From the NCBI GenBank assembly GCA_964492775.1, contig CAZBLH010000002.1, forward strand, positions 62,615 to 126,614: DNA of 64,000 nt, read 5' to 3'. Positions within the stretch are counted from its first letter, which is position 1, and each line of letters starts with the position of its first letter. A program made the position numbers and the translations under genes. Positions 1,479 through 43,669 of this stretch are shown here, in pieces. This DNA comes from an uncultured Eubacteriales bacterium (GTDB lineage Bacteria > Actinomycetota > Coriobacteriia > Anaerosomatales > PHET01). The notes under the pieces were generated by a model that worked only from the letters and a program-made list of their open reading frames with translations, made no database searches and was not told where the DNA came from.

Positions 1479-1592
1479 CCGGCGCGAACGCTGGTCAGCC
1501 GCGCGGCGCGTTGCGGCGCTGACTGTGGGCATGCCTGTTGCAGAAGGTCGTTGAGACACGATGGAACGCCAACGCTCACGGAGCGAGCAGCT

Positions 1593-2813
1593 ATGAATGA
1601 CGACATCAAGCGCATCATGTATAGCCTCGAGGAGACCGACGAGCCCGACGGTGATGTGCCCGAGGCACCGTCTCCTGACGCTGCGCCTCCGAGTGACGAC
1701 TCGGAACTGCTCATTGACGACGTGGAGGCGCGCAACAAGCGCACGCGTCGCATCCTGATCGCGGCCGCTATCGTCCTCACCATAGTGTTGGGCGTGCTCG
1801 TGTGGTTGCTCCTTACCGGCGGCCTCGGCGACCGGATCGCGCCGCTCAATCGCACCCCCGTCTCGGGAATCTCTGCCGAACTCGTGATCGATGGGCCGGG
1901 CACGGGCGACCTGCCCAAGTTCGATTCACCCATGGGCGCGGCGTTCAGCAGGAATGGTGAGTTGATCTACGTCGCAGACTCCGGCAATGACCGGGTCTGC
2001 ATCTTTGAGCGAGACGGGACTTATGTCTCCGAGTTCGGAGGCAAAGGCGTCGCCAAGCCGATCGAAGGCACTAAGCCGACCTGGGATGAAGGCGAGCTCA
2101 ACTACCCCGTCGACATCGCAGTGGACCGTCAGGGCTTGGTGTACGTCGCCGACTTCTACAACGACTCCATCTCGGTCTTCTCGGCGGAGGGCGAGTTTGT
2201 GCGGCGCTTCCCGGACCCGCATAAGGTGGTCGGCAAGGGTGGATCCGGGAGCGGAGGCACCGGGATCGCGGTGACTTCGGTCCATGTGGCGGGCAACCGT
2301 CTGTACGCCACCGACTCCTACCAGGTGTTCGTATTCAGCCTCGAAGGCGAACTGATTCAGCAGTTCGGCCGTCCGGGGATCGAGCCGGGGCAGTTCGATC
2401 GGCCTGGCGGAGTCGCGGTGGACGACGGTGGTCGCATCGCCGTGTCGGACTCGAACAACAACAGGGTCACGATGTTCACGCCAATGCTCGAAGTACTCTG
2501 GAGCACCGGTGGTCGGAGGCCGCTGGAGTACGGAGCAACCCCAACTCAGACTCCCGACGCCGCGTCTGAGGGATTCGTGTTGCCGAGAGGCATCACCGTG
2601 ATCGATGGGGGAGACCTGCTCATCGCCGATCCGCTTGCGCAGGAGCTTGTGCGCGTGTCTGGGATCGGAAGAATCGTGACCCGGTACGGAAGCAGGGGCG
2701 TGCAACCCTCGGAGCTCAACTTCCCGAGCGATGTGGACTGGATGGACGAGCGTGTCCTCATCACAGACCGGGAGAACGATCGCGTGCAGGTTGCCCGTCT
2801 TGTGGACGAGTAG
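1593..2813 (+). CDS. Membrane-anchored NHL-repeat beta-propeller protein
   Basis: This lies in ORF 1551..2813, and I prefer the ATG at 1593 (MNDDIKR). It has an acidic/Pro-rich N-tail, one TM helix (ILIAAAIVLTIVLGVLVWLLLTGG), then about 6 NHL signatures (FDSPMGAAFSRNGELIYVADSGNDRVCIF; LNYPVDIAVDRQGLVYVADFYNDSISVF; FDRPGGVAVDDGGRIAVSDSNNNRVTMF; LNFPSDVDWMDERVLITDRENDRVQV). Confidence 0.8.
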   Translation: MNDDIKRIMYSLEETDEPDGDVPEAPSPDAAPPSDDSELLIDDVEARNKRTRRILIAAAIVLTIVLGVLVWLLLTGGLGDRIAPLNRTPVSGISAELVIDGPGTGDLPKFDSPMGAAFSRNGELIYVADSGNDRVCIFERDGTYVSEFGGKGVAKPIEGTKPTWDEGELNYPVDIAVDRQGLVYVADFYNDSISVFSAEGEFVRRFPDPHKVVGKGGSGSGGTGIAVTSVHVAGNRLYATDSYQVFVFSLEGELIQQFGRPGIEPGQFDRPGGVAVDDGGRIAVSDSNNNRVTMFTPMLEVLWSTGGRRPLEYGATPTQTPDAASEGFVLPRGITVIDGGDLLIADPLAQELVRVSGIGRIVTRYGSRGVQPSELNFPSDVDWMDERVLITDRENDRVQVARLVDE

Positions 2814-2824
2814 TGGCGTGAACC

Positions 2825-2854
2825 TTGCTCTAGCTTAATCGTGATTGGTAGACT
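2825..2854 (+). promoter_or_regulatory. Candidate sigma70-type promoter for the heptahaem cytochrome gene
   Basis: TTGCTC (2825-2830), an 18-nt spacer, then TAGACT (2849-2854). It is followed by GAAGAGG and the ATG at 2889. The track's GTG start at 2841 would fall inside this element. Confidence 0.35.
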
Positions 2855-2888
2855 GGCAGCGTACCTTCCTGAAGAGGTGTCTTCTCTG

Positions 2889-3953
2889 ATGCGCAGGATC
2901 CTGATAATCGCACTTGCTACCGTGGCTTTCACAACTGTGGCGGCTACGGCTCTCGCGTATCCAAGTCCCGCTGAACCCTTGCAGGCCTGTGTCGAATGCC
3001 ACGGGAGTGCTGACGTTTCCGCGGCCACCGAACCGAGTGGGCCACACGGCGGCTACACAGTCGGTACCGATAAGTGCAGCACCTGTCACTCGGTCCACCA
3101 AGCCAAGTCTCCTCGCGCGCTTCTGCGCGGGGCGACGATTGCGGCCACCTGCAACACCTGCCATGACGGCACCGGTGGCCGCGGTGTCTACGGAGCAATC
3201 GCGCATCGGATGTCCGATGAGGAACAGGGTCCGCTGGGTGGACACACCCTCGGTGGTGCTGTCGACGGCAAGGTCACCGTCCCGGGCGGCAATCCTGATG
3301 GCACTCCGGCTCAGGTCGCTTTCACTGGCGAGGACGGCGGGTTGACATGCACCGACTGTCATAGCGCCCACGGCGGCGATACCGTTGACAAGTTCAAGGG
3401 TGACCGTTCTCGCGAGACCTCCGGCACTGTGATCGAGTCGAGCCGTCTGCTCCGCGCACGCCCGACTTCGGCGGATAATGCCGTGACAACATACGGCACT
3501 GACTGGTGTGTTGCCTGCCACAAGGGCGCTGATAAGGCTGGCATGAATCACCCTGTAGCGAGTTCGACATCGACCGTTCCCGCTGACTACTCGCAGGTTC
3601 GCGGTCTGCAGAGCTACGACGCGACGGCATTCGTAGAGGCCAATGAGCTGATTGGCCTTGGCCGGTCGAACCTTGGCTACGTCATGCCGACCGGCCTGAA
3701 CGATGGCACTGCTCCGATCTGCCAGCAGTGCCATGAGGACTCTCGGAGCATCGCGAACGACCCTGCGTATCCGCAGTCGGTCCGACGCGCGACTGAGGAG
3801 TTCAGCGCACCGTACTCCGGCGAGATTGACGGCAACCCGAAGTTCCAGAACTTCCCGCACGAGACCGTCAATTCGAAGCTGCTCATCGAGCCGAAGGACT
3901 CACTCTGCACAAACTGCCACGATGTGGTGCCCGGGCCTGGCAGCAGCGAGTGA
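2889..3953 (+). CDS. Secreted multihaem c-type cytochrome (7 CxxCH motifs)
   Basis: This lies in ORF 2841..3953, and the ATG at 2889 gives a Sec signal peptide (MRRILIIALATVAFTTVAATALA|YP). There are seven CxxCH motifs: CVECH, CSTCH, CNTCH, CTDCH, CVACH, CQQCH, CTNCH. The pattern CSTCHSVH..LLR..CNTCHDGTGG resembles doubled-CXXCH multihaem domains. I see no TM helix and no LPXTG signal. Confidence 0.85.
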   Translation: MRRILIIALATVAFTTVAATALAYPSPAEPLQACVECHGSADVSAATEPSGPHGGYTVGTDKCSTCHSVHQAKSPRALLRGATIAATCNTCHDGTGGRGVYGAIAHRMSDEEQGPLGGHTLGGAVDGKVTVPGGNPDGTPAQVAFTGEDGGLTCTDCHSAHGGDTVDKFKGDRSRETSGTVIESSRLLRARPTSADNAVTTYGTDWCVACHKGADKAGMNHPVASSTSTVPADYSQVRGLQSYDATAFVEANELIGLGRSNLGYVMPTGLNDGTAPICQQCHEDSRSIANDPAYPQSVRRATEEFSAPYSGEIDGNPKFQNFPHETVNSKLLIEPKDSLCTNCHDVVPGPGSSE

Positions 3954-3986
3954 CAGCATTGGCGAAAGCTGACCCGTTAACGGGGC

Positions 3987-4015
3987 TTAAAGAGTCAGGA
4001 TAGTTGTGCTAGTGT
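3987..4015 (+). promoter_or_regulatory. Candidate promoter for the ~12-haem cytochrome gene
   Basis: TTAAAG (3987-3992), a 17-nt spacer, then TAGTGT (4010-4015). TAnnnT hexamers of the same kind (TAGTGT/TAGACT) also occur upstream of nuoA (23925-23930) and prfA (56252-56257, 56264-56269). Confidence 0.3.
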
Positions 4016-4044
4016 GGCAGCGCGTTGAGTTCAACGCGCTGCCA
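4015..4044 (+). promoter_or_regulatory. Perfect 12-bp inverted repeat (operator or 5'-UTR stem-loop)
   Basis: TGGCAGCGCGTT-gagttc-AACGCGCTGCCA. It lies between the putative -10 element and the AAGGAGG RBS of the gene starting at 4065. Only TTT follows it. Confidence 0.35.
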
Positions 4045-4064
4045 TTTCACTGCAAGGAGGAACG

Positions 4065-5468
4065 ATGAGCGAGTTCGATCGCACAGAGGGCCCAGACGAC
4101 CAGGGTCCCGTTGGTGCGTCCGGGGACGAGCCGCGCGAGAAGGTCGAGGGCTACGAGCGGGTCGAGGATGTGCCGCTCGGCAAAGCGACTACGGCTTCCC
4201 CTGGTGACTCTTCCGGCTCTGACAAGCCCGTAAAGAAGTCCAACGAGCGTAAGCGGCTCAGCGGGCTGGTGGGAGGCTTCAAGAACCCGGCGACGCGTCC
4301 CCGCTTCATTATCTGGACGGGCGTTGCGGTATTCGCACTCGCTGCAGTCATGATCGTGGCGCTTGGCGTCACGTCGACGCGGTGGTTCTGTGCTGAGGGC
4401 TGTCACAAAGTCCAGGATGACTCGATCATCGCTTACGAGCATTCCCCCCACAAGAACATCAGTTGCATGGCGTGCCACATGCCGGCCGGAGCGGATCCCA
4501 TCACGTTCATCCTCCACAAGGCCGAGGCGCTCGGTGAGCTCTACCTCACCGTGACTGACAACTTCGAGCTGCCGCTCAACGGGCATAGCCATGTGTCGCT
4601 CACCATGGCGTCGGCCCAGTGCACGCAGTGCCACGCTCTCGACACTCGCAAAGTGACGCCCTCCGCCGGCATCCTGATCGACCACGAGGTCCACGCATCC
4701 AAGGGTGTCGAGTGCACGTACTGCCACAACCGCGTGGCGCATGTCGAGGACTTCGAGCTGACGCTCAACGACCCCTCCACCGGTGAGCGCAACAAGCCGC
4801 ACGCGAACTTCTCGTCGATGACCGCTTGCTTCCGTTGCCACGTTCAGGGCGACGTGAAGGCCGCCGTTGCGTCGCTGACTGCTCCGGGTGAATGCAGCGC
4901 CTGTCACACCCCCGGATTCGAGCTCAAGCCTGCAAGCCACAAGGAAGCGGACTTCTTCCCGGCCAAGCATGGCGAACTTGCCAATGCTGAGGCGGAGCGG
5001 GTAGCCGAGGCCCTCGCTGAGGTTGGCGGCGCGGGTGAGGGTGAGGAGCACTCGAGCCTGAAGCTCCCGTCGATCGGCACAGACAAGGCGTACGCGTCCT
5101 CCGGTGGCGAAACGCTCGGTACCCAGCTGCCCGCCGTCGAGACGATCAACGAGTGCTATACCTGCCACGCCGAGAAGTTCTGTACCGACTGCCACAAGGC
5201 GCCGGTGCCGCACCCTGCAGACTTCATTCAGGCCCACGGCGAGTGGGGGCAGAAGGATCCGAAGTCCTGCGAGATGTGCCACGGTCCGGTCGACCGTTTC
5301 TGTGACGACTGCCACCACGGCAGCGCCATCAACTGGACGGTGGACACCAGCAGGTCGTGGATCCAGCAGCACGACGACGCTGTTGGCAAGACTGGCGCCA
5401 AGGCGTGCTTCGAGTGCCACGATCCGACCTACTGCGCACGGTGTCACGTAAGAGGCGGCAAGCTCTAG
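4065..5468 (+). CDS. Membrane-anchored multihaem cytochrome c; an N-terminal NapC/NirT/NrfH-like quinol dehydrogenase module fused to further haem domains (11 CxxCH + 1 CxxxCH)
   Basis: An AAGGAGG RBS sits 5 nt upstream of the ATG. The protein has an ~80-aa charged N-tail, one TM helix (FIIWTGVAVFALAAVMIVALGV), then WFCAEGCHKV...HSPHKNISCMACHMP, which is typical of NapC/NirT. Further motifs are CTQCH, CTYCH, CFRCH, CSACH, CYTCH, CTDCH, CEMCH, CDDCH, CFECH, CARCH. Confidence 0.85.
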   Translation: MSEFDRTEGPDDQGPVGASGDEPREKVEGYERVEDVPLGKATTASPGDSSGSDKPVKKSNERKRLSGLVGGFKNPATRPRFIIWTGVAVFALAAVMIVALGVTSTRWFCAEGCHKVQDDSIIAYEHSPHKNISCMACHMPAGADPITFILHKAEALGELYLTVTDNFELPLNGHSHVSLTMASAQCTQCHALDTRKVTPSAGILIDHEVHASKGVECTYCHNRVAHVEDFELTLNDPSTGERNKPHANFSSMTACFRCHVQGDVKAAVASLTAPGECSACHTPGFELKPASHKEADFFPAKHGELANAEAERVAEALAEVGGAGEGEEHSSLKLPSIGTDKAYASSGGETLGTQLPAVETINECYTCHAEKFCTDCHKAPVPHPADFIQAHGEWGQKDPKSCEMCHGPVDRFCDDCHHGSAINWTVDTSRSWIQQHDDAVGKTGAKACFECHDPTYCARCHVRGGKL

Positions 5469-5597
5469 CCGCTCCCGGGGCACTGCGATAGCCGATGCGA
5501 TACACTGTCCCCCTGTCCGGGTTCCGGGCAGGGGGACGGCTTTGGCCGCAGGGTAATCCGGATACGGTGTCTTTGACGAAAGGGACCTTGCGAAGCC

Positions 5598-7406
5598 ATG
5601 CCCAAAGTGGATGTCGTCCTTCTGCACGCGCCGGCTGTCTATGACTTCCGTGAGCGCTCGATCATGTTCGGGCCGGTCTCGGACATGGTGCCGTCGACGC
5701 CGATTTTCGAGATGTATCCCGTCGGGCTCACTACGATGGCGGAGTACATGGAGCGGCATGGCATCACCGTGCGTATCGTCAACCTGGCGGTGCTCATGCT
5801 CAACCGCCCGAACTTCGACGTAGAAGCGCATATCGCGAGCATGGATGCCGCTTTGTTCGGCATCGACCTGCACTGGCTGCCTCACGCCCATGGCTCGGTG
5901 GAGATCGCGCGCATCGTCAAGCGGCTGCATCCCGACACGCCCGTGGTCTTCGGCGGGCTTTCCTCGACCTACTTCCACGAAGAGCTCATCACCTATGACG
6001 CCGTCGATCTCGTGATGCGCGGAGACTCGACCGAGGAGCCGATGCGCCAACTGGTCGAGGCCGTGAAGCGCGGTGGCTCGCTCAGCGAGATACCCAACCT
6101 CACCTGGAAAGACTCGACCGGGGCGGTGACGGTGAACCCGCTCGAGTGGGTTCCGCGCGACATGAACGCCATCTCGCTTGACTACTCCTACAACATGAAG
6201 GCGGTCATCCGGTACCGCGACATGATGGGCTTCGTTCCCTTCAAGGACTGGCTCCAGTACCCGGTGTGCGCCTCACTGATCTGCAGAGGCTGCACGCACA
6301 ACTGCGTGACCTGTGGCGGCTCGGCGCACTCGTTCCGGGAGCACTTCGGAAGAGGCCGCGTCGCGTTTCGCGATCCCGATCTGCTGGTGAGAGACATCCG
6401 GCACATCCAGCGCTACATCCCCGGACCCATGTTCGTGCTCAATGACTTCCTGCAGGCCGGGCCGGAGTACACTCGCCAGTTCATCGAGGGTCTCAACGGC
6501 ATCAAGATGAAGAACCCGATCGGGTTCGAATTCTTCGGCCCGCCCAAAGAGGGTTTCTACGAGCTGCTGGACGCGAACCTCAACGACTGGTCGGTGGAGA
6601 TCAGCGTTGAAAGCCATGATGACGGGGTGCGCGCAGCCTTCGGTAAGAAGCACTATACGATCGATCAGATCGAGTACACCATCAAGGACGCGCTCGCCAA
6701 GGGTTGCTCGCGTTTCGACCTGTACTTCATGACCGGCATTCCGACCCAGACTGCGGCGAGCGTCCGGGAGACTGCCGACTACGTCCGGCACCTCTACGAA
6801 TCGGTCGGGTACGACAAGCGGCTGCTCTGCTTCATCAGCCCCATGGCGCCCTTCCTCGATCCGGGCTCGCAGGTCTTCGACCGCCCAGAGGATTTCGGCT
6901 ACACACTCAGGGCCAAGACTCTCGAAGAGCACAGGGAGCGCCTCCTCCTGCCCTCGTGGAAGCACATCATGAATTACGAGAGCGATGCAATGACCGCCGA
7001 CGAGATGGTCGACTCGACGTATGATGCGGCCCTGGCGATCAACCGCATCAAGGGTGAAGGCGGAGTGATCGATACCGCCACGATGGCGACCACGGAGACG
7101 CGCATCGCCGAAGCTCGCGACGCCATGCGCAGGATCGACGCGATCATGGACGGTCCGATCTCAACGCGCGAGCCTGCGCTGGTAGCGCTTAAAGAGGAGT
7201 TCGACCGCCTGTCCCAGTCAACGGTATGCGAGAAGACCGAGCTGAACTGGCCGCGGTACGTGGGCGTGCGCCACGTGGCTGCCGCCGCCGGCCTGTTCGT
7301 GCGCGAGAACACCGCCCTGCTGTTCGGTAAGAACAAGGACGGTGTGCGCCCTGCTGTATCCGACCAGCACACCCGAACTGAACCGGTCTACGAGCCGAAA
7401 GCCTGA
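5598..7406 (+). CDS. B12-binding-domain radical SAM protein, substrate unknown
   Basis: The N-terminal ~170 aa have a Rossmann-like B12-binding-domain layout (VVLLHAP...VRIVNL...GIDLHW...PVVFGG...VDLVMRGD). The radical SAM cluster motif is CTHNCVTC (CX3CX2C), embedded in VCASLICRGCTHNCVTCGG. There are only 8 Cys in total, so I see no SPASM or other auxiliary-cluster motif. Confidence 0.75.
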   Translation: MPKVDVVLLHAPAVYDFRERSIMFGPVSDMVPSTPIFEMYPVGLTTMAEYMERHGITVRIVNLAVLMLNRPNFDVEAHIASMDAALFGIDLHWLPHAHGSVEIARIVKRLHPDTPVVFGGLSSTYFHEELITYDAVDLVMRGDSTEEPMRQLVEAVKRGGSLSEIPNLTWKDSTGAVTVNPLEWVPRDMNAISLDYSYNMKAVIRYRDMMGFVPFKDWLQYPVCASLICRGCTHNCVTCGGSAHSFREHFGRGRVAFRDPDLLVRDIRHIQRYIPGPMFVLNDFLQAGPEYTRQFIEGLNGIKMKNPIGFEFFGPPKEGFYELLDANLNDWSVEISVESHDDGVRAAFGKKHYTIDQIEYTIKDALAKGCSRFDLYFMTGIPTQTAASVRETADYVRHLYESVGYDKRLLCFISPMAPFLDPGSQVFDRPEDFGYTLRAKTLEEHRERLLLPSWKHIMNYESDAMTADEMVDSTYDAALAINRIKGEGGVIDTATMATTETRIAEARDAMRRIDAIMDGPISTREPALVALKEEFDRLSQSTVCEKTELNWPRYVGVRHVAAAAGLFVRENTALLFGKNKDGVRPAVSDQHTRTEPVYEPKA

Positions 7407-7414
7407 TTGCCGAG

Positions 7415-8164
7415 ATGCCCGAACACAACCAGTCAAACACCACTCCAGTGACCGAGGCTGCGCCTGGTGAGGCCACTGCGGAGCGCGTGCGCGGCATCTT
7501 CTCCAATATCGCGTCGAGCTACGACACGTTCAACGCGCTCGCGTCGCTCGGCATCGACCGCAGCTGGCGCAGCGCGTTGGTCAAGGCAGGTCGGTTCGAT
7601 GCCACTTCCCGGGCGCTCGACATCGCAGCCGGCACTGGCGACGTCTCGCTGGCGATTGCCAAGAAGGCTGCACCTGCCGAGGTGGTCGTCTCGGACTTCG
7701 CGCCCGAGATGCTCGTGATCGCCGAGGAGAAGGCGCGGTCGTACCAGGGCCCTACGCGACTCAAGTTCATTGAGGCCGATGCTCAGGCGCTGCCGTTCGA
7801 GGACGACAGCTTCGACGTGGTGACCGTCGCTTTCGGCGTGCGGAACTTCCCCAAGCGGGAACTCAACTTCGCCGAGGTGCTGCGGGTGCTGAAGCCCGGT
7901 GGACGCTACGTGATCCTCGAGTTCTCGCGGCCGCCGTTCGCGCCGTGGCGGGCTGTCTATCACGTGTACCTACGCGGCGTGATTCCGGCGATCGGCGCTC
8001 TCCTCACCGGCGACAAGCCCAGCTTCGTGTATCTCAACGACTCGATCCGCCGTTTCCCGACGCAGCCGGAGCTCGCTGCAGAGCTCAAGGAAGCGGGTTT
8101 CTCGGCGGTCGAGTGGAAGAACCTCACCGGCGGTATCGTCGCACTGCATACGGCGGTTAAGTAG
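7415..8164 (+). CDS. menG: Demethylmenaquinone methyltransferase (UbiE/MenG family, class I SAM methyltransferase)
   Basis: IFSNIASSYDTFNALASLGIDRSWR is the UbiE/MenG signature region. The SAM motif is LDIAAGTGD, followed by DSFDVVTVAFGVRNF and LKPGGRYVILEFS. Confidence 0.85.
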   Translation: MPEHNQSNTTPVTEAAPGEATAERVRGIFSNIASSYDTFNALASLGIDRSWRSALVKAGRFDATSRALDIAAGTGDVSLAIAKKAAPAEVVVSDFAPEMLVIAEEKARSYQGPTRLKFIEADAQALPFEDDSFDVVTVAFGVRNFPKRELNFAEVLRVLKPGGRYVILEFSRPPFAPWRAVYHVYLRGVIPAIGALLTGDKPSFVYLNDSIRRFPTQPELAAELKEAGFSAVEWKNLTGGIVALHTAVK

Positions 8165-8222
8165 CCGCTCGCCTACGCGGGCTGGGGTAGAATCGCGTGT
8201 AACCGACGCTGAAGGGGCATCG

Positions 8223-9569
8223 ATGCTGCTTACTGCCAGATACGTGCTTCCCGTCGCCGCACCTCACATCGAGTACGGAGCAGTCCTTGTGAGAGGCGAC
8301 CGCATCGTCGAGATCGGCGACTTTGAACACCTGCGCGCCAAGCACCCCGACGAGGAGGTGCGCGACTTCGGTCTGGCCGCGATCATGCCCGGCTTCATCG
8401 ACCTGCACACGCACCTTGAGTACACGACTATGCGTGGGCTCGTCGACGACGTGCCCTACTCACGCTGGAAGTATCAGTTGTTGCAGAAGGAGCGCCTGTA
8501 CTCGCCCGAGGACTGGGACGACTCGGCGATGCTCGGCGCGCTCGAGGTCCTGCAGTCCGGCATCACGACGATCGCTGACATCACCGAGACCGGCGCCTCG
8601 GCCCGGGCCGCGAACCGTGCGGGCCTGCGATCGGTCATCTACCGCGAAGTCCTGACTATGGACCGGCATGAGGTTCCGGGCGTGATGCAGGCGGCGGCGA
8701 CCGACATCGAGGATTGGCGCTCGGAGGCCGACGGTGAGCGCACTCGGTTCGGAATTGCGCCTCATGCTCCGTACTCATGCCACCCGGAGCTGTTCCAGAA
8801 GGTTGCCGAGTATGCCGCCGACGGCACCCCGGTCGCGATGCATCTGGCCGGCAGCCGCGAAGAGTACCAGTTCGTGAAGTACGGCTCCTCCATGCTCGCG
8901 ATCGACGTTCGCGACATATACGACGCTCAGGCGCCCCTGTGGCTGCCGACGGGAGTGAGCCCGGTCCGCTACGTCCTGCAGTGGGGCTTGTTCGACGTGC
9001 CGAACGTGATGGCGGTGCACTGCACGCAGATCGATGGGGACGACATCGAGATCCTGGCGTCACGGGACGTCTCGGTTGCGCACTGCCCGCGCTGCAACGC
9101 GAAACTGGGAATGGGAATGGCGCCAGTGGCTGCGTTGCTCGGCGCCAAGGTGCGGGTCGGTTTGGGAACCGACTCCCCGGCAGCATCGAACTCGACCGAC
9201 ATGTTCGAGGAGATGCGCATCGGGCTGCTGCTTCAGCGTGCCGCGTGCGGCGAGGGTCGCTTCACCCCCGCTCGCGAGTTCGTGAAGATGGCCACTCTGG
9301 ATGCGGCGCGTGCCCTGCGCCTGGAAAGGGAGATAGGATCGATCGAGCCTGGCAAGCGGGCTGACCTCATCGCAGTCGACCTCTCGGAGCCGCACCAGCT
9401 GCCCACGCACAACCCCTATGGGACACTCGTTCACACCGCAAGCCAGGAGAATGTCTTGTGGACGATGGTCGGAGGCAAGGTGCGCTATGAGGCACACCAG
9501 TGGCCACAAGTGGATCACGAGCGGGTGTTTGCGCGGGCCGAGGAGATGCGCAGCAAGCTCAGCGCCTAA
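8223..9569 (+). CDS. Amidohydrolase-superfamily deaminase (MtaD / aminodeoxyfutalosine-deaminase-like)
   Basis: The metal-binding motif is PGFIDLHTHLEY, with later HLAGS, AVHCT and GLGTDS motifs typical of the MTA/SAH/guanine-deaminase clade. Adjacency to menG suggests a futalosine-pathway role, which is inference. Confidence 0.6.
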   Translation: MLLTARYVLPVAAPHIEYGAVLVRGDRIVEIGDFEHLRAKHPDEEVRDFGLAAIMPGFIDLHTHLEYTTMRGLVDDVPYSRWKYQLLQKERLYSPEDWDDSAMLGALEVLQSGITTIADITETGASARAANRAGLRSVIYREVLTMDRHEVPGVMQAAATDIEDWRSEADGERTRFGIAPHAPYSCHPELFQKVAEYAADGTPVAMHLAGSREEYQFVKYGSSMLAIDVRDIYDAQAPLWLPTGVSPVRYVLQWGLFDVPNVMAVHCTQIDGDDIEILASRDVSVAHCPRCNAKLGMGMAPVAALLGAKVRVGLGTDSPAASNSTDMFEEMRIGLLLQRAACGEGRFTPAREFVKMATLDAARALRLEREIGSIEPGKRADLIAVDLSEPHQLPTHNPYGTLVHTASQENVLWTMVGGKVRYEAHQWPQVDHERVFARAEEMRSKLSA

Positions 9570-9709
9570 CCTATCTTCAGGTTTGTCCTCCGTTGGCGTG
9601 GTCGTTGCTTCATTACACGCGATGACCCCGACACGGGGTGTTTGATGTTGCAAGTGAGTCTGTATGCCGTTTCGGGGGAAGCCCCGTCCGACTTGGGAGG
9701 TTACCTCAC

Positions 9710-23668: not shown

Positions 23669-23744
23669 GCCGACGTAGCTCAGCTGGTAGAGCAGCGCAC
23701 TCGTAATGCGCAGGCCAGGGGTTCGAGTCCCCTCGTCGGCTCCA
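23669..23744 (+). tRNA. tRNA-Thr (anticodon CGT)
   Basis: A cloverleaf can be read by eye: acceptor GCCGACG/CGTCGGC, D-arm GCTC-AGCTGGTA-GAGC, anticodon stem GCGCA/TGCGC with loop CTCGTAA, and T-arm AGGGG-TTCGAGT-CCCCT. The discriminator is T and CCA is encoded. Confidence 0.9.
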
Positions 23745-23785: not shown

Positions 23786-24016
23786 CCGCTTCCGCACATG
23801 TACCCGGGGCGCGAAAGCGGTACCCTTAACAGAGGTAAGGCTGTGTTTGCCGCTTACCGTGGAAACTCGGCCGTTCACCGAAGGGATGCGCCGTTTAGCT
23901 GGTAGGTCCCGGGTCGCGGTGTGGTAGTGTCCGACGACCCCGCCCGCCTTGCCCAGAGAGCCTGTCTGGACTCAGCGCGTGCGGTCGTGGCGGAATAGTA
24001 CGCGAGGAGGTGGACC

Positions 24017-24379
24017 GTGGAACTTGAGGGCATCGTCATCACCGTATTCATGGTGCTCGGCGCCTTGTTCGCGGCGGTCGTCTTCGCCACCTCGGCACTG
24101 CTCGGACCGTCCAAGCCCTCCGCGGCCAAGGGTGCAACCTATGAGTGCGGCGTCGACTCGGTTGGGCCCCCCTGGGTGCGGTTCCGTGCTGGCTACTACG
24201 TCTATGCGCTCCTGTACGTGATCTTCGATATCGAGACCGTGTTCCTGTATCCCTGGGCGGTCACGTTCGGTCAAGCGGGTGTGGGTTGGTTCGTGTTCGC
24301 CGAGATGGTCGTGTTCGTGACCATTCTGGTCGCCGGCTTGGCGTACGCCTGGAAGGAGGGCGCACTCAGGTGGCGCTAG
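24017..24379 (+). CDS. nuoA: NADH-quinone oxidoreductase subunit A
   Basis: It is 120 aa with 3 TM helices and the motifs YECG and [12 protein letters not shown]. Confidence 0.9.
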
Positions 24380-24876
24380 ACCGACTGACAGGCGAGGACT
24401 CGATCCTCTTCATCCGGAGCGAGCAGCTGTTCGACTGGGCCCGCCGGCGTTCGCTGTGGTACATGGCCTTCGGCATCGCGTGCTGCGCGATCGAGGGGCT
24501 GATGCACGCCTCCGGCCCGCGCTTCGACTTCGATCGTCACGGAGTGTTCTTCCGGGCCAGCCCGCGCCAGGCCGATGTGATGATCGTCGCCGGCACGGTG
24601 AACCACAAGATGGCTGACACGGTGAAGAAGCTCTACGACCAGATGCCTGAGCCCAAATGGGTCGTGGCGATGGGCGCGTGCGCCTCCACCGGAGGTCCAT
24701 TCCGCGAGTACCCCAACGTCGTGCTGGGCGTCGACAAAGTCGTGCCTGTCGATGTCTACATCCCGGGCTGTCCTCCTCGGCCCGAGTCGGTGCAGTACGC
24801 GTTCCTGACGCTCATGGACAAGATCAGCGCGAGGACGGAGGAGCGGCTTGAGGCCAGACGCGATGCACATCGCTGA
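24370..24876 (+). CDS. nuoB: NADH-quinone oxidoreductase subunit B
   Basis: The GTG at 24370 follows GGAAGGAGGG and lies within ORF 24145..24876. Motifs are [26 protein letters not shown] and PGCPPRPE (N2 cluster ligands). Confidence 0.9.
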
Positions 24877-25324
24877 CATCCTCGCGCGCGTCGGCGTCGA
24901 TGGGGGAGTGAGTGCCGAGATCGAGCAGGTTGAGCCGCTCGGCCCGGTTCTGCGCGTCGATGCCAGCGACACCGCTGCGGCCCTCGCGGCGCTGAAGGAC
25001 TCGGATCTCGCCTACGTGATGCTGGTGGACTTGTTCGGCATCGACATCGGCGAGGCGGTCGACATCGTCTACCACGTCCGCTCGCTGTCGAGTACCGGCG
25101 ATGCGTATCTCAAGGCGCGCTACGAATACGGGTCGGCGCTAACGAGCGTATGGAAGGTGCATCCCGCCGCGCTCTTGCCCGAGCGGGAGTGCGCCGAGAT
25201 GTTCGGGCTTTCCCTTGAGGGGCATCCCAATCCCAAGCGGCTGCTGACAGTCGAGGGCGCGATGCTACCCCCGCTTCTGAAGTCGACGGAGATCCGAACG
25301 GCTGAGGAGGTGAGGTCCCGGTGA
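24848..25324 (+). CDS. nuoC: NADH-quinone oxidoreductase subunit C
   Basis: It is 30-kDa-subunit-like ([24 protein letters not shown]). The start is the TTG at 24848 (GGAGGAG 4 nt upstream) or the ATG at 24863. Confidence 0.8.
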
Positions 25325-26529
25325 GCGATCCGCGTAGCACCGTCCGGCATGTCGGCTGGCTGGCCGACGCGCCAGCTTGCGACATCGAGGACCTGCCGCT
25401 TTCGATCCGGCGTGCGCCCTGCGGTGTGGACGAGCTCGAGACCGAGCACCTCGTCTTGAACATGGGTCCCCAGCACCCGTCGACGCATGGGGTGCTGCGC
25501 GTGCTGCTCGAGCTGGATGGCGAAGAGATCATCACCGGCGAAGCCGCGATCGGATACCTGCACCGCGGTATCGAGAAGCTCGCCGAGCACCGACGCTACA
25601 GCGCAGTGGGTACTCTCATGGACCGCGGCGACTATGTCTCCGGGATCCACGGCGAGCTGGCGTTCGCGTTGGCCGCCGAGAAGGTCGCAGGCATCGAGGT
25701 ACCTCGCCGTGCGAGCTGGCTACGGGTGTTGGTCGGCGAGTTGAACCGCCTCTCAAGCCACCTGGTGTGGTACGGCACGATGGGGCTGGACGCGGGCGCG
25801 ATGGGGCAGTTCCTGTACGCATTGCGCGACCGCGAGAACCTGCTTGACATCCTTGAAGACATCAGTGGCCAGCGGATGATGTTCAACTACGTCCGTCCGG
25901 GCGGCGTGGTCGCGGACATCACGCCGACGGCGGAGGCAAAGATCCGCGAGTTCCTCACCACGATTGACAAGTACCTCACCGAGCATGAGGAGCTGCTCGG
26001 CGGAAACGAGATCTTCCAAGCGCGCATGCGTGGTGTCGGCGTGATCGACAAGGACATGGCGGTCGCGTTCGGTCTCACCGGTGCGAACCTGCGCGCCTCG
26101 GGTGTGAGCTTCGACGTGCGTCGTGACCGCCCGTACGCCGCGTACGCCGAGATGGAGTTCGACGTCCCCACCGAGCGGACCGGCGACTGCTACTCGCGCT
26201 ACCTCGTGCGCATGGCCGAGATGCGCGAGTCCGTGCGCATCCTGCGCCAGTGCATGGACGGCCTGCCTGAGGGTGAGTACACCGCGAAAATGCCGAAGGT
26301 CTTCAGGCCTCCGGCAGGGGAGGCGTACGCTGCTGTCGAATCCCCGCGCGGTGAGCTTGGCGTCCATCTGGTGAGCGACGGCACAGAGCGTCCTTACCGG
26401 ATGCACTACCGCCCACCAGCGCTCTACGCGCTGCAGGCAGGCGAGGTGCTCTTGCCCGGACAGCTTATCGCGGATGCGGTTGTGACGCTCGGCAGCCTCG
26501 ACTTCGTGCTCGGGGAGATCGACCGATGA
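25321..26529 (+). CDS. nuoD: NADH-quinone oxidoreductase subunit D
   Basis: Motifs are LNMGPQHPSTHGVLR, GYLHRGIEKL and a C-terminal LDFVLGEIDR. It has no NiFe-type CxxC pairs. Confidence 0.9.
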   Translation: MSDPRSTVRHVGWLADAPACDIEDLPLSIRRAPCGVDELETEHLVLNMGPQHPSTHGVLRVLLELDGEEIITGEAAIGYLHRGIEKLAEHRRYSAVGTLMDRGDYVSGIHGELAFALAAEKVAGIEVPRRASWLRVLVGELNRLSSHLVWYGTMGLDAGAMGQFLYALRDRENLLDILEDISGQRMMFNYVRPGGVVADITPTAEAKIREFLTTIDKYLTEHEELLGGNEIFQARMRGVGVIDKDMAVAFGLTGANLRASGVSFDVRRDRPYAAYAEMEFDVPTERTGDCYSRYLVRMAEMRESVRILRQCMDGLPEGEYTAKMPKVFRPPAGEAYAAVESPRGELGVHLVSDGTERPYRMHYRPPALYALQAGEVLLPGQLIADAVVTLGSLDFVLGEIDR

Positions 26530-27518
26530 GCCTGCTATACGCGACATTGCGCGTGCTTGCGGCGCTCAGCCTGATGCTCATGAACGGCGTCGTGCTGATT
26601 TTGATGCTACGCAAGGTGCTCGGCCGTCTGCATCTGCGGCTGGGTCCGATGGAGCTGGGTCCGCAGGGCATGTTCCAGACGACCGCCGACGTGCTCAAGC
26701 TGCTCACGAAGGAAGACATCACCCCCACGCGCGTCGACAAGGCGCTGTTCTACATCGCGCCGCTGATCGTGTTCGTCCCGTCGCTCGCGGCCTACGGGGC
26801 GCTGCCGTTCTCGGGGGAATGGGTCATCGCCGACCTCAACCTGGGCCTGCTCTGGACGTTCTCGATCATGGCAATCATCCCGCTGGGAATCGTCGCGGCA
26901 GGTTGGGCGAGCTACAACAAGTGGTCGCTGATGGGCGGAATGCGGGCCGTCGCCCAGCAGGTGAGCTACGAGGTCCCGCTGCTTCTCGCAGCGCTTCCTC
27001 CCGTCATGATCGCCGGGTCCCTCAAACTGAGCGATATCGTGCGGGCTCAGATTGACTCGGTGTGGTTCTGGCTGCCATGCCTGCCTGCGTTCGTTCTGTT
27101 CCTCATCGCCGGGCTGATGGAGTCGAACCAGACTCCGTTCGACATGTCCGAGGCCGACTCAGAGCTCGTCGCGGGTTACGCGACCGAGTACTCGTCGATG
27201 AAGTTCGGACTGCTGTTCCTCGCTGAGTTCTCCAACACTTTCATCCTCGCCTCGTTGATCGTCACGCTGTTCCTTGGCGGATGGTCACTGCCCTTCGTGC
27301 CCGATACGGTCATCGGCGCCCCCGTCGTGTTCGCGCTCAAGACGTACGCGGTGATCTTCGTTCTGATGTGGATACGCGGCACCATGCCGCGCGTGCGCAT
27401 CGATCAGATGCTGGCCTTCGGCTGGAAGGCCATGCTTCCGCTCTCGCTCGCGTGGGTCATGGTGACTGCCGCGGTCATCAAGGTCTGGCCTCTGCTCTTC
27501 GGAGGTGTGGGCCGATGA
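26526..27518 (+). CDS. nuoH: NADH-quinone oxidoreductase subunit H
   Basis: The ATGA overlaps the nuoD stop. It is polytopic, with the motifs LRKVLGRLHLRLGP, ESNQTPFDMSEADSELVAGY and EYSSMKF. Confidence 0.9.
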   Translation: MSLLYATLRVLAALSLMLMNGVVLILMLRKVLGRLHLRLGPMELGPQGMFQTTADVLKLLTKEDITPTRVDKALFYIAPLIVFVPSLAAYGALPFSGEWVIADLNLGLLWTFSIMAIIPLGIVAAGWASYNKWSLMGGMRAVAQQVSYEVPLLLAALPPVMIAGSLKLSDIVRAQIDSVWFWLPCLPAFVLFLIAGLMESNQTPFDMSEADSELVAGYATEYSSMKFGLLFLAEFSNTFILASLIVTLFLGGWSLPFVPDTVIGAPVVFALKTYAVIFVLMWIRGTMPRVRIDQMLAFGWKAMLPLSLAWVMVTAAVIKVWPLLFGGVGR

Positions 27519-28033
27519 AGATCTGGGGCTCGGGGCTGCTTAAGGGTATGGCCATCACGATGCGCAACATGTTGCGCACGCCGATCACTGTCCAGTACCC
27601 GCACCAGAAGGTCGTGCTGCCCGAGCGTGCGCGCTGGGCTTTGCAGATGAAGTACGACGAGGCGGGCGAGCACAAGTGCACGGCGTGCCTGATCTGCGAA
27701 CGGACATGTCCCGACTACATCATCGACATCGAGGTCACGACCGCCGAGGACAGAAGCAAGCACATCGACGCCTACACCTATGAGATCGGAGCCTGCATGA
27801 TGTGCGGGCTGTGCGTGGAGGCGTGCCCGTTCGACGCCATCCAGATGGGCAAAGACTACGAACTCGCCCGAACCTCAAGCGAACAGCTCACCATCCGCCT
27901 GCTGGAAGACACTCCGGCAGTCTCGCCGAAGCGCAAAGCCGCGGCTGCGAGTGAGAACTCGGCGCGCACCTCTGCGGCCGAGTCGGCCGCCACCTCCGCC
28001 GCTGAGTCGGCGCCTGAGGAGGTGGGCTCGTGA
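27515..28033 (+). CDS. nuoI: NADH-quinone oxidoreductase subunit I (2x[4Fe-4S]) with a C-terminal Ala/Ser/Glu-rich extension
   Basis: The ATG at 27515 (ATGA overlap) lies inside ORF 27281..28033. The cluster motifs are CTACLICERTCP and CMMCGLCVEACP. A ~40-aa tail contains the tandem SAAESAAT/SAAESAP. Confidence 0.9.
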   Translation: MKIWGSGLLKGMAITMRNMLRTPITVQYPHQKVVLPERARWALQMKYDEAGEHKCTACLICERTCPDYIIDIEVTTAEDRSKHIDAYTYEIGACMMCGLCVEACPFDAIQMGKDYELARTSSEQLTIRLLEDTPAVSPKRKAAAASENSARTSAAESAATSAAESAPEEVGS

Positions 28034-28536
28034 ACGACATCCTCGGAGTGGTCGTGTTCGTCGCACTGGCTGCCTTCTCCATCGGTGGAGCTATGGCGAT
28101 GGTCACCTCGCGCAACGTCGTTCACGCCGCGTACTGGTTGCTCGCGGTCTCGGCCGCTGCCGCAGGGCTCTTCGCACTGCTCGAGGCGGGCTACGTGGCA
28201 CTGATCCAGTTGCTGGTCTACGCCGGTGCCGTCGCGATTCTCAACATCTTCACGATCATGATCACTATGCGTCGTCGGGAAGACGCGGTCCGCCCACGCG
28301 ATCTCTCCTGGACCGGGTTCGTTCTGACCGCAGGCTTCTTCGGGCTCGTGACGTACGCGGTGCTCGGCAGCCCCCTTCCCGAGGCCGTGCCCGTCGCCGA
28401 GTTCCCCGGGTTGCTTGAGTTCGGCAGGCAGCTCTTCTCGGCACAGGGTTGGGCTCTGCCGTTCGAGGTTGCCTCTCTGGTACTCACTGCTGCGCTGGTC
28501 GCCGCGGTGTGGTGGTCGAAGGAGGACGACGAGTGA
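28030..28536 (+). CDS. nuoJ: NADH-quinone oxidoreductase subunit J
   Basis: GTGA overlap with the nuoI stop. It has 5 TM helices and the motif ALIQLLVYAGAVAILNIF. Confidence 0.85.
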   Translation: MNDILGVVVFVALAAFSIGGAMAMVTSRNVVHAAYWLLAVSAAAAGLFALLEAGYVALIQLLVYAGAVAILNIFTIMITMRRREDAVRPRDLSWTGFVLTAGFFGLVTYAVLGSPLPEAVPVAEFPGLLEFGRQLFSAQGWALPFEVASLVLTAALVAAVWWSKEDDE

Positions 28537-28844
28537 GCGTTGGCCTGACGCCATATCTGATCCTCGCGGCCGCGCTGTTCTCGATCGGGTTGTTCGGCGC
28601 CGTCTCGAAGAAGGGTGCCGTGCCGGTGCTCATGTCGCTCGAGCTCATGTCTGTGGCTGTCAGCCTGAACCTGCTCGCGTTCTCGAAGCATGTGACACCG
28701 GAGCAGATGACAGGACAGTACTTCACGGTCTTCTCAATGGTCATCTCGGCAGCTGAGATCGGTATCGGGCTCGCGCTCGTCATCGCGATATACCGCGCAT
28801 CGCGCACCGCCGAGCTGGCCGACATTTCGGACTTGAAGGGGTAG
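28533..28844 (+). CDS. nuoK: NADH-quinone oxidoreductase subunit K
   Basis: The GTG at 28533 (GTGA overlap) lies in ORF 28449..28844. It has 3 TM helices and the motifs LMSLELM and AAEIGIGLALV. Confidence 0.85.
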   Translation: MSVGLTPYLILAAALFSIGLFGAVSKKGAVPVLMSLELMSVAVSLNLLAFSKHVTPEQMTGQYFTVFSMVISAAEIGIGLALVIAIYRASRTAELADISDLKG

Positions 28845-28846
28845 CG

Positions 28847-30778
28847 GTGGACTGGGTCGCACTCATACCCCTGCTCCCGGCAGCGGCGTTTATTGCGCTT
28901 CTGCCTCTGTCGCGTGCTGTGCGCAACCGGATGCTCTGGCTGCCGGTCGCTGCGATGTCCGGCTCGCTCGCCCTTTCAGTCGCGTCGCTTATCGCAATAT
29001 GGCCGAGCGGCTCGGCTGAGGCGGCCTCCGGGCCCGCCTGGCGGCTGAGCTGGCCTCTTGCCTCTGTAGGTGGTGCGGATATCGGCCTGTCGCTGTCGCT
29101 CGACCCGCTCGCTGCAGCCACGCTTACCGTTGTCACGATCGTTGCCACAGGCGTACTGGTGTACTCGCTCGGCTACCTGCACCGTGACGACCGCCGAGGC
29201 TGGTACTTCGCAGTGGTCTCGCTGTTCACGTCGGCCATGCTTGCGCTCGTGCTCTCGGGGAACCTGCTTCTGACCTTCGCCATGTGGGAGGTCATGGGTT
29301 TGTGCTCGTACCTGCTCATCGGCTTCTGGCATGAGCTCGAGGCACCGCGCAAGGCCTCTCAGAAAGCGTTCCTCACCACGCGCATCGGCGATCTCGGCTT
29401 CCTGGTTGCGCTCTTCGCGATTTTCGCGAACACCGGCAGCTTCGACCTGGCGCAAGTTCTTCAGGCTGCGCCCGGCTGGGCCCCTGGGGTCGCGCTCGTT
29501 GTGGCGCTTGGACTGCTTTGGGCTGCGATGGGTAAGTCGGCGCAGCTGCCGCTACACGTGTGGCTCCCTGACGCGATGGCCGGCCCGACGCCTGCGTCCG
29601 CGCTCATCCATGCGGCCACCATGGTCGCTGCTGGCGTGTTCGTCGTCGCCCGCATGTTGCCTGTCTTCGAGCTGGTGCCCGGAGTCATGAGCGCGATGCT
29701 TGTGATTGGAGCCGTGACCGCGCTCGTCGGCGGACTGCTCGCAGCGGTCCAGCACGATGTGAAGAAGGTGGCGGCCTACTCGACGATCAGCCAGCTCGGC
29801 CTCATGTTCGTGGCGCTCGGCGCGGGGAGCGCGACCGCGGCGCTGTTCCACCTGACCACGCACGCCTTCTTCAAGTCCCTGATATTCCTCGGCAGTGGCG
29901 TGATCATCCACTCCGCTCACACGCAGGACATGCGGGAGATGGGCGGGCTCGCGAAGCATCTGCCCGTCACGACCGTGACGTTTGGCATCGGATGCCTTGC
30001 GCTCGCCGGCGTACCGCCGCTGTCTGGCTTCTTCAGCAAGGACGAAATCCTTGCCGTCCTGCTGCATGATCAGCACTACGCGATCTTCGCCGTCGTGGTG
30101 CTCTCATCGGCGATCACCGCCTACTACGTCACCCGCCTGTGGTTCCGTGTCTTCACCGGACCCGAGCAGGGCCACGGCCTGCATGAGGCGCACTACTCAA
30201 TGCTCGCGCCGATGGTCGTGCTTGCCGCGATCACTCTGGTGGCCGGCTTCGGCACGACGCTGTTCGCCGGGCTGTTCGGCGAGACGGGCCACTTCCCGGG
30301 CCTCGACATGTGGCTCATCTCGTTCGCCGTCGCCGGGACGGGCATCGCTGCCGGCTGGTGGATCTACGGGCGCCGCTCGGCAGTCACGAACACGCGCGTG
30401 TGGAAGGACCGATTCGGCTACGCGTATGACGCGCTGGCGAACAAGCTGTACTTCGACCTCACGTACGAGAAGGTCTTCATTCGCGGCTACTTCGTGCTAG
30501 CGTCGGAGCTCAGCCGCTTCGACGCCAGGGTCGTCGATGGTGTCGTCAATGGAGCGGCCCGCGTCTGGTCGGTGCTTTCCGGCGGCATGTCGCTGTTTGA
30601 CGGCCGAGTTGTGGATGGCGCGGTGAACGGGCTTGCATCGGGAGCGAGGGCGCTCGGCAACTCGGCGCGTCGGATCCAGACCGGGCGGCTACAGGACTAC
30701 CAGCGGCTCATCGTGGGAGCCTCGCTCTGCCTGCTTATGGGCTTGTACGTACTGATGCTGGTGAAAGGGGCCGGATAA
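28847..30778 (+). CDS. nuoL: NADH-quinone oxidoreductase subunit L (antiporter-like)
   Basis: It is 643 aa, with WEVMGLCSYLLIGFW, GKSAQLPLHVWLPDAMAGPTPASALIHAATMV and a C-terminal lateral-helix region. Confidence 0.9.
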   Translation: MDWVALIPLLPAAAFIALLPLSRAVRNRMLWLPVAAMSGSLALSVASLIAIWPSGSAEAASGPAWRLSWPLASVGGADIGLSLSLDPLAAATLTVVTIVATGVLVYSLGYLHRDDRRGWYFAVVSLFTSAMLALVLSGNLLLTFAMWEVMGLCSYLLIGFWHELEAPRKASQKAFLTTRIGDLGFLVALFAIFANTGSFDLAQVLQAAPGWAPGVALVVALGLLWAAMGKSAQLPLHVWLPDAMAGPTPASALIHAATMVAAGVFVVARMLPVFELVPGVMSAMLVIGAVTALVGGLLAAVQHDVKKVAAYSTISQLGLMFVALGAGSATAALFHLTTHAFFKSLIFLGSGVIIHSAHTQDMREMGGLAKHLPVTTVTFGIGCLALAGVPPLSGFFSKDEILAVLLHDQHYAIFAVVVLSSAITAYYVTRLWFRVFTGPEQGHGLHEAHYSMLAPMVVLAAITLVAGFGTTLFAGLFGETGHFPGLDMWLISFAVAGTGIAAGWWIYGRRSAVTNTRVWKDRFGYAYDALANKLYFDLTYEKVFIRGYFVLASELSRFDARVVDGVVNGAARVWSVLSGGMSLFDGRVVDGAVNGLASGARALGNSARRIQTGRLQDYQRLIVGASLCLLMGLYVLMLVKGAG

Positions 30779-30780
30779 GC

Positions 30781-43601: not shown

Positions 43602-43669
43602 GCGGACAATCCCGGGTGGCACGCCGGCGCATGCGTGGGCCGGCAGAACGCGAGCACGGAGGCACGGTT

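Follow-up and report, generated by a model that had tools for sequence, protein, structure and literature searches.

A cobalamin-type radical SAM enzyme of family TIGR04190 encoded beside menG in an uncultured Coriobacteriia bacterium is a candidate for menaquinone tailoring

The DNA analyzed here, referred to as the window, is a stretch of 64,000 nucleotides (nt) from an uncultured Eubacteriales bacterium (GTDB lineage Bacteria; Actinomycetota; Coriobacteriia; Anaerosomatales; PHET01), corresponding to positions 62,615 to 126,614 of contig CAZBLH010000002.1 in assembly GCA_964492775.1. Within it, a gene at 5598..7406 on the + strand, read from an ATG start as an open reading frame (ORF) of 602 amino acids (aa), encodes a protein of the radical S-adenosylmethionine (SAM) type with an N-terminal B12-binding domain. 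Only 8 nt separate its stop codon from the start of a gene for a 249-aa demethylmenaquinone methyltransferase of the UbiE/MenG type (7415..8164, +; PF01209, 228.5 bits), and a third gene on the same strand (8223..9569, +; PF01979, 201 bits) encodes an amidohydrolase that resembles enzymes deaminating 5'-methylthioadenosine (MTA), S-adenosylhomocysteine (SAH) or 5'-deoxyadenosine. The preliminary description of this locus had named the second gene as a demethylmenaquinone methyltransferase, and the MenG protein indeed passed the cutoffs of both TIGR01934 (246 bits versus 158.35) and NF001244 (226.7 versus 216). Among solved structures, the amidohydrolase comes nearest to the MTA/SAH deaminases 4dyk, 4gbd, 4f0r, and Tm0936 (170-138 bits), versus 93 and 85 bits for the aminofutalosine deaminases 3v7p and 2imr; an identity as aminofutalosine deaminase was dropped on this comparison in favour of the MTA/SAH type. 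All NCBIfam equivalogs fell below their cutoffs for this protein, the best scoring 284 against 540.

Upstream of the radical SAM gene lies a gene for an NrfH-like cytochrome that is anchored in the membrane and has 11 CXXCH motifs (4065..5468), itself preceded by a gene whose product has seven such motifs. The gap between cytochrome and radical SAM genes is 129 nt rather than the 130 nt given previously, the earlier figure of 8 nt on the MenG side being exact. Folding of the RNA from this gap (5469-5597) gave -65.7 kcal/mol (z -3.6), with none of 200 shuffled sequences folding as well, and located a 15-bp GC-rich hairpin at 5506..5538 (+) that a simple terminator scan had missed because its U-tract is weak. 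This hairpin is probably a terminator dividing two transcription units. Following the amidohydrolase gene, a consensus scan returned, as a weak pattern match, a terminator-like hairpin with a T-rich tail (GTTTGATGTT; 9625..9649, +) whose 6-bp stem contains five GC pairs, and this site probably forms the 3' end of a three-gene unit. The predicted transcription unit, 5598-9569, would therefore comprise the radical SAM enzyme, MenG, and the amidohydrolase, and would stand apart from the cytochromes. A sigma-70-type promoter was not matched, the consensus being uninformative for this phylum, and a search of the window for riboswitches or other Rfam elements returned none but one tRNA.

The 602-aa protein contains a Rossmann-type B12-binding domain at residues 37-146 (5706..6035, +; PF02310, E 2.9e-13, 50.1 bits versus a cutoff of 32.1) and a radical SAM domain at residues 228-395 (PF04055, E 3.1e-11), in which the CX3CX2C cluster motif reads CTHNCVTC (residues 232-239, with C232, C236, and C239; 6291..6314, +). 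The protein has eight cysteines (224, 229, 232, 236, 239, 370, 411, and 544), and in an alignment of 34 diverse homologues of 26-62% identity only C232, C236, and C239 are invariant; C224 and C229, which lie beside the cluster motif, are not conserved, nor is C544, the one cysteine of the C-terminal 200 residues. As only three cysteines are invariant, no SPASM, twitch, or other auxiliary-cluster motif is present, and neither PF13186 (SPASM) among the Pfam families nor NF045702 (Tes) among the NCBIfam matches was found. The preliminary description of a protein with a B12-type N-terminal domain, a single CTHNCVTC motif, and eight cysteines, lacking SPASM or extra Cys-rich motifs and distinct from multi-cluster enzymes of the Tes or glycerol dialkyl glycerol tetraether (GDGT)-MAS type, therefore stands. 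In the B12 domain, N62, G99, G120, D137, and G142 are invariant across the same alignment, and H92, W93, H96, and G119 are conserved at 90% or more. No transmembrane segment was detected in the protein, the maximum Kyte-Doolittle value over a 19-residue window being 1.1, and it is predicted to be soluble.

An AlphaFold2 (AF2) model of the protein was of high confidence (predicted local distance difference test, pLDDT, 90.7; predicted template modelling score, pTM, 0.90) and includes a helical C-terminal domain after the radical SAM core. When this model was compared with solved structures using Foldseek, the best matches were the cobalamin radical SAM enzymes TsrM, TokK, MgmA, OxsB, and CysS (template modelling (TM) score 0.51-0.56, 12-15% identity, probability 1.0), whereas a sequence search of the PDB returned no significant match (best E 0.07). 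As modelled, the protein is of class B architecture: a Rossmann domain of the cobalamin type stands N-terminal to a radical SAM partial TIM barrel carrying one [4Fe-4S] cluster. The protein would be expected to use cobalamin. The same three-part fold of Rossmann domain, partial TIM barrel with CX3CX2C motif, and C-terminal domain is found in TsrM, TokK, CysS, MgmA, and OxsB, although their substrates are soluble antibiotic precursors or protein rather than a membrane quinone. The MenK, MqnK, and MenK2 enzymes, by comparison, resemble the role proposed below, extra C-methylation of menaquinone in anaerobes including Coriobacteriia, but belong to class C, are HemN-like, and lack a B12 domain. 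No HemN-like family was matched in Pfam or NCBIfam, and HemN itself (1olt) ranked 46th in Foldseek with a TM score of 0.25 over the core only, in agreement with the earlier placement of the protein in class B and not with MenK/MqnK in class C.

Comparison with radical SAM family profiles, a check suggested in the preliminary description, matched the protein to the NCBIfam family TIGR04190 (B12_SAM_Ta0216), which is functionally uncharacterised. The score was 632.6 bits against a curated cutoff of 500 (E 5.7e-190), with residues 5-513 aligning to positions 1-509 of the 554-position profile, and the runner-up NCBIfam family, HpnR, reached 48 bits. The protein shares the length and domain order of the family, reads HAPAVYDFR...FEMYPVG in its N-terminal motif where the family consensus is HAPSVYDFR...FEMYPxG, and has no feature that sets it apart from other members. 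Judged by its sequence it is an ordinary member of a catalogued family without assigned function, and the earlier term "orphan" does not apply: more than 5,800 homologues were found at E<1e-10 in a database clustered at 90% identity, and 359 clusters at 50% identity have E<1e-30.

The nearest relatives (68-84% identity) come from metagenome-assembled genomes (MAGs) of Coriobacteriia. Members above the family cutoff occur among Bacteria in Eggerthellaceae, including the cultured Rubneribacter badeniensis, Geothermocultor, Oleimmundimicrobium, many Anaerolineae and other Chloroflexota, Dehalococcoidia, Latescibacterota, Dethiobacter, and Desulfobacterota-like metagenome contigs, and among Archaea in Thermoplasmatales, Hydrothermarchaeota, Lokiarchaeota, and Bathyarchaeota. 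Identity across these phyla and domains is 36-59%, which is unusually high conservation, and of the clades that score below the cutoff the closest is an archaeal one (Nitrososphaerota, Bathyarchaeia, and Methanocellales). The literature searched contained no mention of TIGR04190 or Ta0216 and no paper linking a class B enzyme to menaquinone. Two further domain combinations were also observed in the family, a fusion to TatC (P0130, 814 aa) that forms a single ORF on a short contig (L092, 117-2561) and a fusion to PGA_cap (P0134, 1060 aa).

Gene neighbourhoods were collected using a narrower family alignment than the 34-sequence one, which was too diverse for this purpose; the scan, which took in no more than 600 candidates, gave 80 genome loci, and extra contigs were fetched for selected homologues (loci carry L numbers below). 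MenG could be counted in 38 actinobacterial-type loci with enough downstream sequence. In 28 of these it is directly adjacent to the radical SAM protein or fused to it, down to 50% identity of the latter, and in four, all from Eggerthellaceae, it lies 180-950 nt downstream; it is absent within the available sequence of the remaining six. The pairing occurs in a cultured gut isolate, R. badeniensis (L015), where the TIGR04190 gene is beside menG, and in most Coriobacteriia loci the amidohydrolase follows MenG. The Eggerthellaceae proteins carry a low-complexity C-terminal tail of ~150 aa rich in Ala, Gly, Glu, and Arg (L015, 2986-3493; L035, about 7794-8247), which is absent from the window protein.

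Three clusters consist of fusions of the radical SAM protein to UbiE, namely P0022 (826 aa), P0124 (893 aa), and P0125 (826 aa), each of them a continuous single ORF on its contig, and P0022 was recovered from two independent samples. The identities of P0022, P0124, and P0125 to unfused proteins are 76.5%, 63%, and 57%, respectively, versus 48-55% among the fusions. Since the fusions are closer to unfused proteins than to one another, they have at least three independent origins. The P0125 fusion gene (L090) stands alone among unrelated transporter and sensor genes, so the radical SAM-MenG pair persists as a unit outside conserved synteny.

Linkage extends to other late genes of menaquinone biosynthesis. 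In deep-branching actinobacteria, represented by Geothermocultoraceae, Oleimmundimicrobium, and an Actinomycetes MAG (L032, L037, and L050), a small subunit (~198-219 aa) resembling a degenerate polyprenyl synthase comes first, then the radical SAM enzyme, menG, a HepT-like large subunit (TIGR02748, 303 bits in L050), and the amidohydrolase. L034 agrees with these loci as far as menG, after which the contig ends with no more than a partial match to polyprenyl synthase, and in L031, L056, and L070 the large subunit adjoins the TIGR04190 gene. Bacillus gerC (hepS-menG-hepT) and Micrococcus hexs-a-menG-hexs-b are late menaquinone operons whose arrangement of small subunit, menG, and large subunit is also that of L032, L037, and L050, with the difference that in these loci a TIGR04190 gene stands between the first two. 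The window, compared with the same operons, keeps only the radical SAM enzyme, menG, and the deaminase. One or two extra B12-binding radical SAM paralogues are encoded a few kb upstream of the TIGR04190 gene in the Geothermocultor-type loci L031 (3209-4585), L032 (455-3330), and L034 (452-3514); the L031 paralogue, scored on NCBIfam, is not a TIGR04190 member.

L085 was assigned as Latescibacterota-like because its small radical SAM protein shares 69% identity with the counterpart in a Latescibacterota MAG. Its genes are, in order, an Fdh-type molybdoenzyme, a 4Fe-4S protein, NrfD, FdhE, a MobA-like protein, MenA (TIGR00751, 138 bits versus a cutoff of 102), polyprenyl synthase, TatA, a small radical SAM protein, TIGR04190, TatA, TatC, and complex-I-like genes. 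The gene for the small radical SAM protein (304-307 aa) overlaps the TIGR04190 start codon both here (6094-7008) and in a contig of a Latescibacterota MAG (L084, 6091-7014); the family it fits best is PTO1314, where its 115-120 bits fall short of the cutoff of 306, and it matches HpnH weakly. The radical SAM protein and TIGR04190 are a possible two-enzyme radical SAM pair. Bathyarchaeota-type loci were obtained from a metagenome scan with the member P0171. An opposite-strand MenA-like gene, a polyprenyl synthase, and a UbiE-like gene precede TIGR04190 in L095 and L096, a polyprenyl synthase and a UbiE-like gene do so in L097, a MenA-like and a UbiE-like gene in L168, and in L163 and L169 a MenA-like gene is directly upstream. 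The proteins of L095, L097, L163, and L168 were scored and passed the TIGR04190 cutoff; those of L096 (the L095 protein, truncated) and L169 are presumed members. Genes of the late menaquinone module are thus linked to the family in no fewer than three unrelated lineages, in differing orders.

Some members also adjoin respiratory modules that use quinones, at the end of a nuo operon or beside genes for Fdh, NrfD, and Tat proteins. The nuo case is a Thermoplasmatales MAG, in which the gene comes after that operon, on its strand, and TatC and TatA are close by; the Hydrothermarchaeota member lies among cytochrome c and molybdoenzyme genes. Tat genes occur within ~5 kb of TIGR04190 in 24 loci; in E. 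coli the classic order is ubiE-ubiJ-ubiB-tatABC, a ubiE-tat synteny. Neighbourhood conservation, which the preliminary description had proposed as a further check, is hence observed as MenG adjacency and fusions and as MenA and polyprenyl synthase neighbours; the opposite outcome, orthologues with no quinone linkage that fall into a characterised family of unrelated substrate, was not what was found.

We tentatively propose, with confidence just short of even, that the window protein is a cobalamin-type radical SAM enzyme that tailors menaquinone or demethylmenaquinone, both substrate and reaction type being ones that we infer. The enzyme would act late in menaquinone biosynthesis, once the intermediate is a lipid, and would share with MenG the prenylated naphthoquinone as its substrate; the most likely reaction would be an extra cobalamin-dependent C-methylation of the ring or prenyl tail, a modification on the prenyl tail being the alternative product. 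In such a mechanism, the reduced cluster would cleave one SAM to give a 5'-deoxyadenosyl radical that activates the substrate, methylcobalamin would provide the methyl group, and a second SAM would re-methylate cob(I)alamin, while the deaminase may clear SAH and 5'-deoxyadenosine, inhibitory by-products of both SAM enzymes. C-methylation is favoured because many characterised class B enzymes are methylases, because the protein to which it is fused methylates that very molecule, because the kind of deaminase found in the unit is one that removes SAH and 5'-deoxyadenosine, and because two of the groups that carry the family, Thermoplasma and Coriobacteriia, are known for methylated menaquinones. 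Thermoplasmaquinone-7 (TPQ-7) makes up 97% of the quinones of Thermoplasma under anoxia (PMC10821996), and Coriobacteriia produce methylmenaquinone (MMK) and dimethylmenaquinone (DMMK; PMC8549271). Methylthiolation, as in methionaquinone-type chemistry, was considered and dropped because there is no conserved cysteine for an auxiliary sulfur-donor cluster. A paper on Slr0320, a different B12 radical SAM protein for which quinones were only speculated upon, was not used.

Several observations weigh against this proposal. For the methylmenaquinones of Coriobacteriia (Adlercreutzia), the class C enzymes MenK and MenK2 are explanation enough, and much of the actinobacterial adjacency to MenG could be inherited synteny. 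AprD4, which is among the Foldseek matches, has a B12-like domain without cobalamin, an example of such a domain lacking the cofactor. In ~45 Chloroflexota loci no MenG, MenA, or polyprenyl synthase was found within 6 kb, at least 15 of them having the order MoxR, TIGR04190, DUF58 and other Chloroflexota loci having CBS genes as neighbours. Similarly, no quinone gene was found within the fetched flanks of 54 Desulfobacterota-like loci, where the conserved gene order is Fer4_11, FdhE, a truncated UshA-like phosphoesterase, TIGR04190, SelA, a RluD-like protein, and YfiH. These Chloroflexota and Desulfobacterota-like loci are the main evidence against a strictly quinone-specific function. A survey from 2025 found many Chloroflexota to be without known quinone pathways (10.1101/2025.09.17.676790), which makes them a poor fit to a quinone-only role.

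The same loci show some recurrent arrangements of their own. MoxR AAA+ ATPase and DUF58 genes, which are normally paired, are split by TIGR04190 in L039-L048, L054, L055, L062, L067, L074, L086, and L089. Also in Chloroflexota, an adenosine deaminase (PF00962) is encoded beside TIGR04190 in L057, L073, and L081 and a SurE nucleotidase in L057, L072, L073, L077, and L078, while the truncated UshA-like 5'-nucleotidase/metallophosphoesterase (~310 aa) is directly upstream throughout the 54 loci numbered within L103-L173 (for example, L120, 2322-3254). Enzymes of purine nucleosides thus recur beside the family, namely a MtaD-like deaminase in Actinomycetota, adenosine deaminase, SurE, and YfiH. 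As SelA and SelB neighbours raised the idea of a selenoprotein, the homologous ORFs in those loci were inspected; all are single uninterrupted frames without an in-frame stop, and this reading found no support.

Other functions were weighed against the same data. Tailoring of isoprenoid chains in general, as with archaeal lipids, by cyclising, desaturating, or methylating an unactivated carbon of polyprenyl or other isoprenoid lipids, is in our judgement unlikely. GrsA/GrsB, Gmm/Cgm/Pgm, and Ted, which act on isoprenoid chains, do share with the window protein a B12 domain, a single CX3CX2C cluster, the lack of an auxiliary cluster, and a C-terminal helical part (PMC13459092; 10.1101/2025.10.20.683597), and their archaeal distribution overlaps that of the family, a likeness taken from published descriptions of these enzymes. 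Genuine members in Thermoplasmatales, Bathyarchaeota, Lokiarchaeota, and Hydrothermarchaeota, the archaeal affiliation of the nearest below-cutoff clade, the overlap with the reported distribution of Ted homologues, the recurrence of polyprenyl synthase as a neighbour, and the Chloroflexi members without nearby quinone genes would all suit such a role. The window protein differs from the Grs, Gmm, and Ted enzymes, however, in that its host is bacterial (Coriobacteriia) and would not be expected to make GDGTs, and its neighbours are quinone genes rather than Tes, Gms, or AttH; no member in the loci examined lies beside an AttH-like hydratase, the partner of Ted. Moreover, the ring methyltransferase UbiE is always the partner in the three fusion clusters described above and MenA is a neighbour, which indicates the assembled quinone rather than free polyprenyl or membrane lipids. 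The same fusions bear on a second reading, to which we would give a similarly small chance, that family members are housekeeping enzymes of anaerobes acting on something other than a quinone (nucleoside, cofactor, RNA, or protein), the adjacency to menG being inherited synteny and the other neighbours lineage-specific gene order. The family's very high conservation across phyla and domains (46-59% identity) is as expected of a core function, each large lineage has neighbours of its own (MoxR and DUF58, SelA and SelB, FdhE, or nuo), and the recurrent purine-nucleoside enzymes (MtaD-like deaminase, adenosine deaminase and SurE, UshA-like protein, and YfiH) would fit as well, but the latter are equally explained as scavengers of SAM by-products. 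Three independent UbiE fusions, one of them outside conserved synteny, and adjacency to UbiE, MenA, or polyprenyl synthase in three unrelated lineages would be hard to obtain by chance or synteny alone.

That the enzyme replaces a core step of menaquinone biosynthesis, such as a decarboxylation or ring formation that in other organisms falls to UbiD/UbiX-type or Men enzymes, rather than tailoring the product, appears very improbable. The cluster of L095 and L096 looks like the late futalosine genes as predicted (PMC4746308), except that the radical SAM enzyme stands where UbiD/UbiX would be. Wide distribution and strong conservation would also suit an essential step. Against this, the prenyltransferase of L085 passes the MenA equivalog cutoff and MenA already decarboxylates, and we know of no precedent for aryl decarboxylation by a class B enzyme. 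Gut Eggerthellaceae, in addition, are reported to use the Men pathway (PMC4746308). Least credible of all, and rejected here, is a role in haem modification or cytochrome maturation for the adjacent multihaem cytochromes. The gene for the 11-haem NrfH-like cytochrome is directly upstream in the window and in only ~12 loci of close relatives, and cytochrome c genes are near the Hydrothermarchaeota member, but most lineages that keep the TIGR04190 gene lack these cytochromes, and no fusion or operon coupling to cytochrome or Ccm genes was found. The cytochrome cassette is absent and MenG is kept in L001/L002, L013, L017, L020, L025/L026, Eggerthellaceae, and deeper lineages. In L001/L002, a Wzy_C/TPR gene, which in the window is 4 kb upstream, directly abuts the radical SAM gene, and the NHL-repeat gene and two multihaem cytochrome genes that occupy 1551-5468 of the window between them are missing; close relatives thus differ by an indel here, the cassette of cytochrome and NHL genes having been inserted locally. 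Judging from these comparisons, the position beside the cytochromes is incidental, and as they are not conserved and a strong hairpin parts them from the radical SAM gene, a haem or cytochrome substrate is unlikely. The earlier placement of the enzyme "between the cytochromes and menG" accordingly describes a conserved neighbour on the menG side only, and among the substrates then considered, the quinone link is conserved beyond this genome whereas the haem option has lost ground. NrfH-type cytochromes are menaquinol dehydrogenases, so their presence fits a quinone substrate.

Extended to the family, menaquinone tailoring would mean that strictly anaerobic Bacteria and Archaea widely possess a so far unrecognised enzyme of late menaquinone biosynthesis, TIGR04190, a cobalamin-type radical SAM protein that makes a modified quinone; we regard this generalisation as possible but hold it slightly more loosely than the proposal for the window protein. 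The product may then come from a third, class B route to methylated menaquinones of the thermoplasmaquinone type, or may be an undescribed tail-modified quinone. To our knowledge, the known menaquinone-tailoring enzymes are few, comprising MenG, class C MenK/MqnK, and MenJ. The redox window in which anaerobic electron transport operates is set by respiratory quinones, which also serve as chemotaxonomic and environmental biomarkers. If true, the proposal would bring into quinone biosynthesis an enzyme class new to it, a conserved and often fused partner of MenG that ranges from Coriobacteriia to Bathyarchaeota and Thermoplasmatales. It would assign a role to a family of thousands and could explain unassigned quinone variants in uncultured anaerobes; Chloroflexota and other members "without known quinone pathways" could in that case mark an undiscovered quinone or pathway.

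Elsewhere in the window, three ORFs, 47892-49256 (454 aa), 49253-50206 (317 aa), and 43198-44187 on the - strand (329 aa), had no Pfam match at E<1e-8. A tRNA-Thr(CGT) at 23669-23744, the sole Rfam or ARAGORN match in the window, lies just upstream of a nuo operon (23949-33609). In this operon NuoD (25321-26529) is directly followed by NuoH (26526-27518), with NuoL, NuoM, and NuoN at 28847-33609; with no NuoE, NuoF, or NuoG genes between NuoD and NuoH, the complex I encoded in the window appears to be of the 11-subunit type without the NADH-oxidising module.

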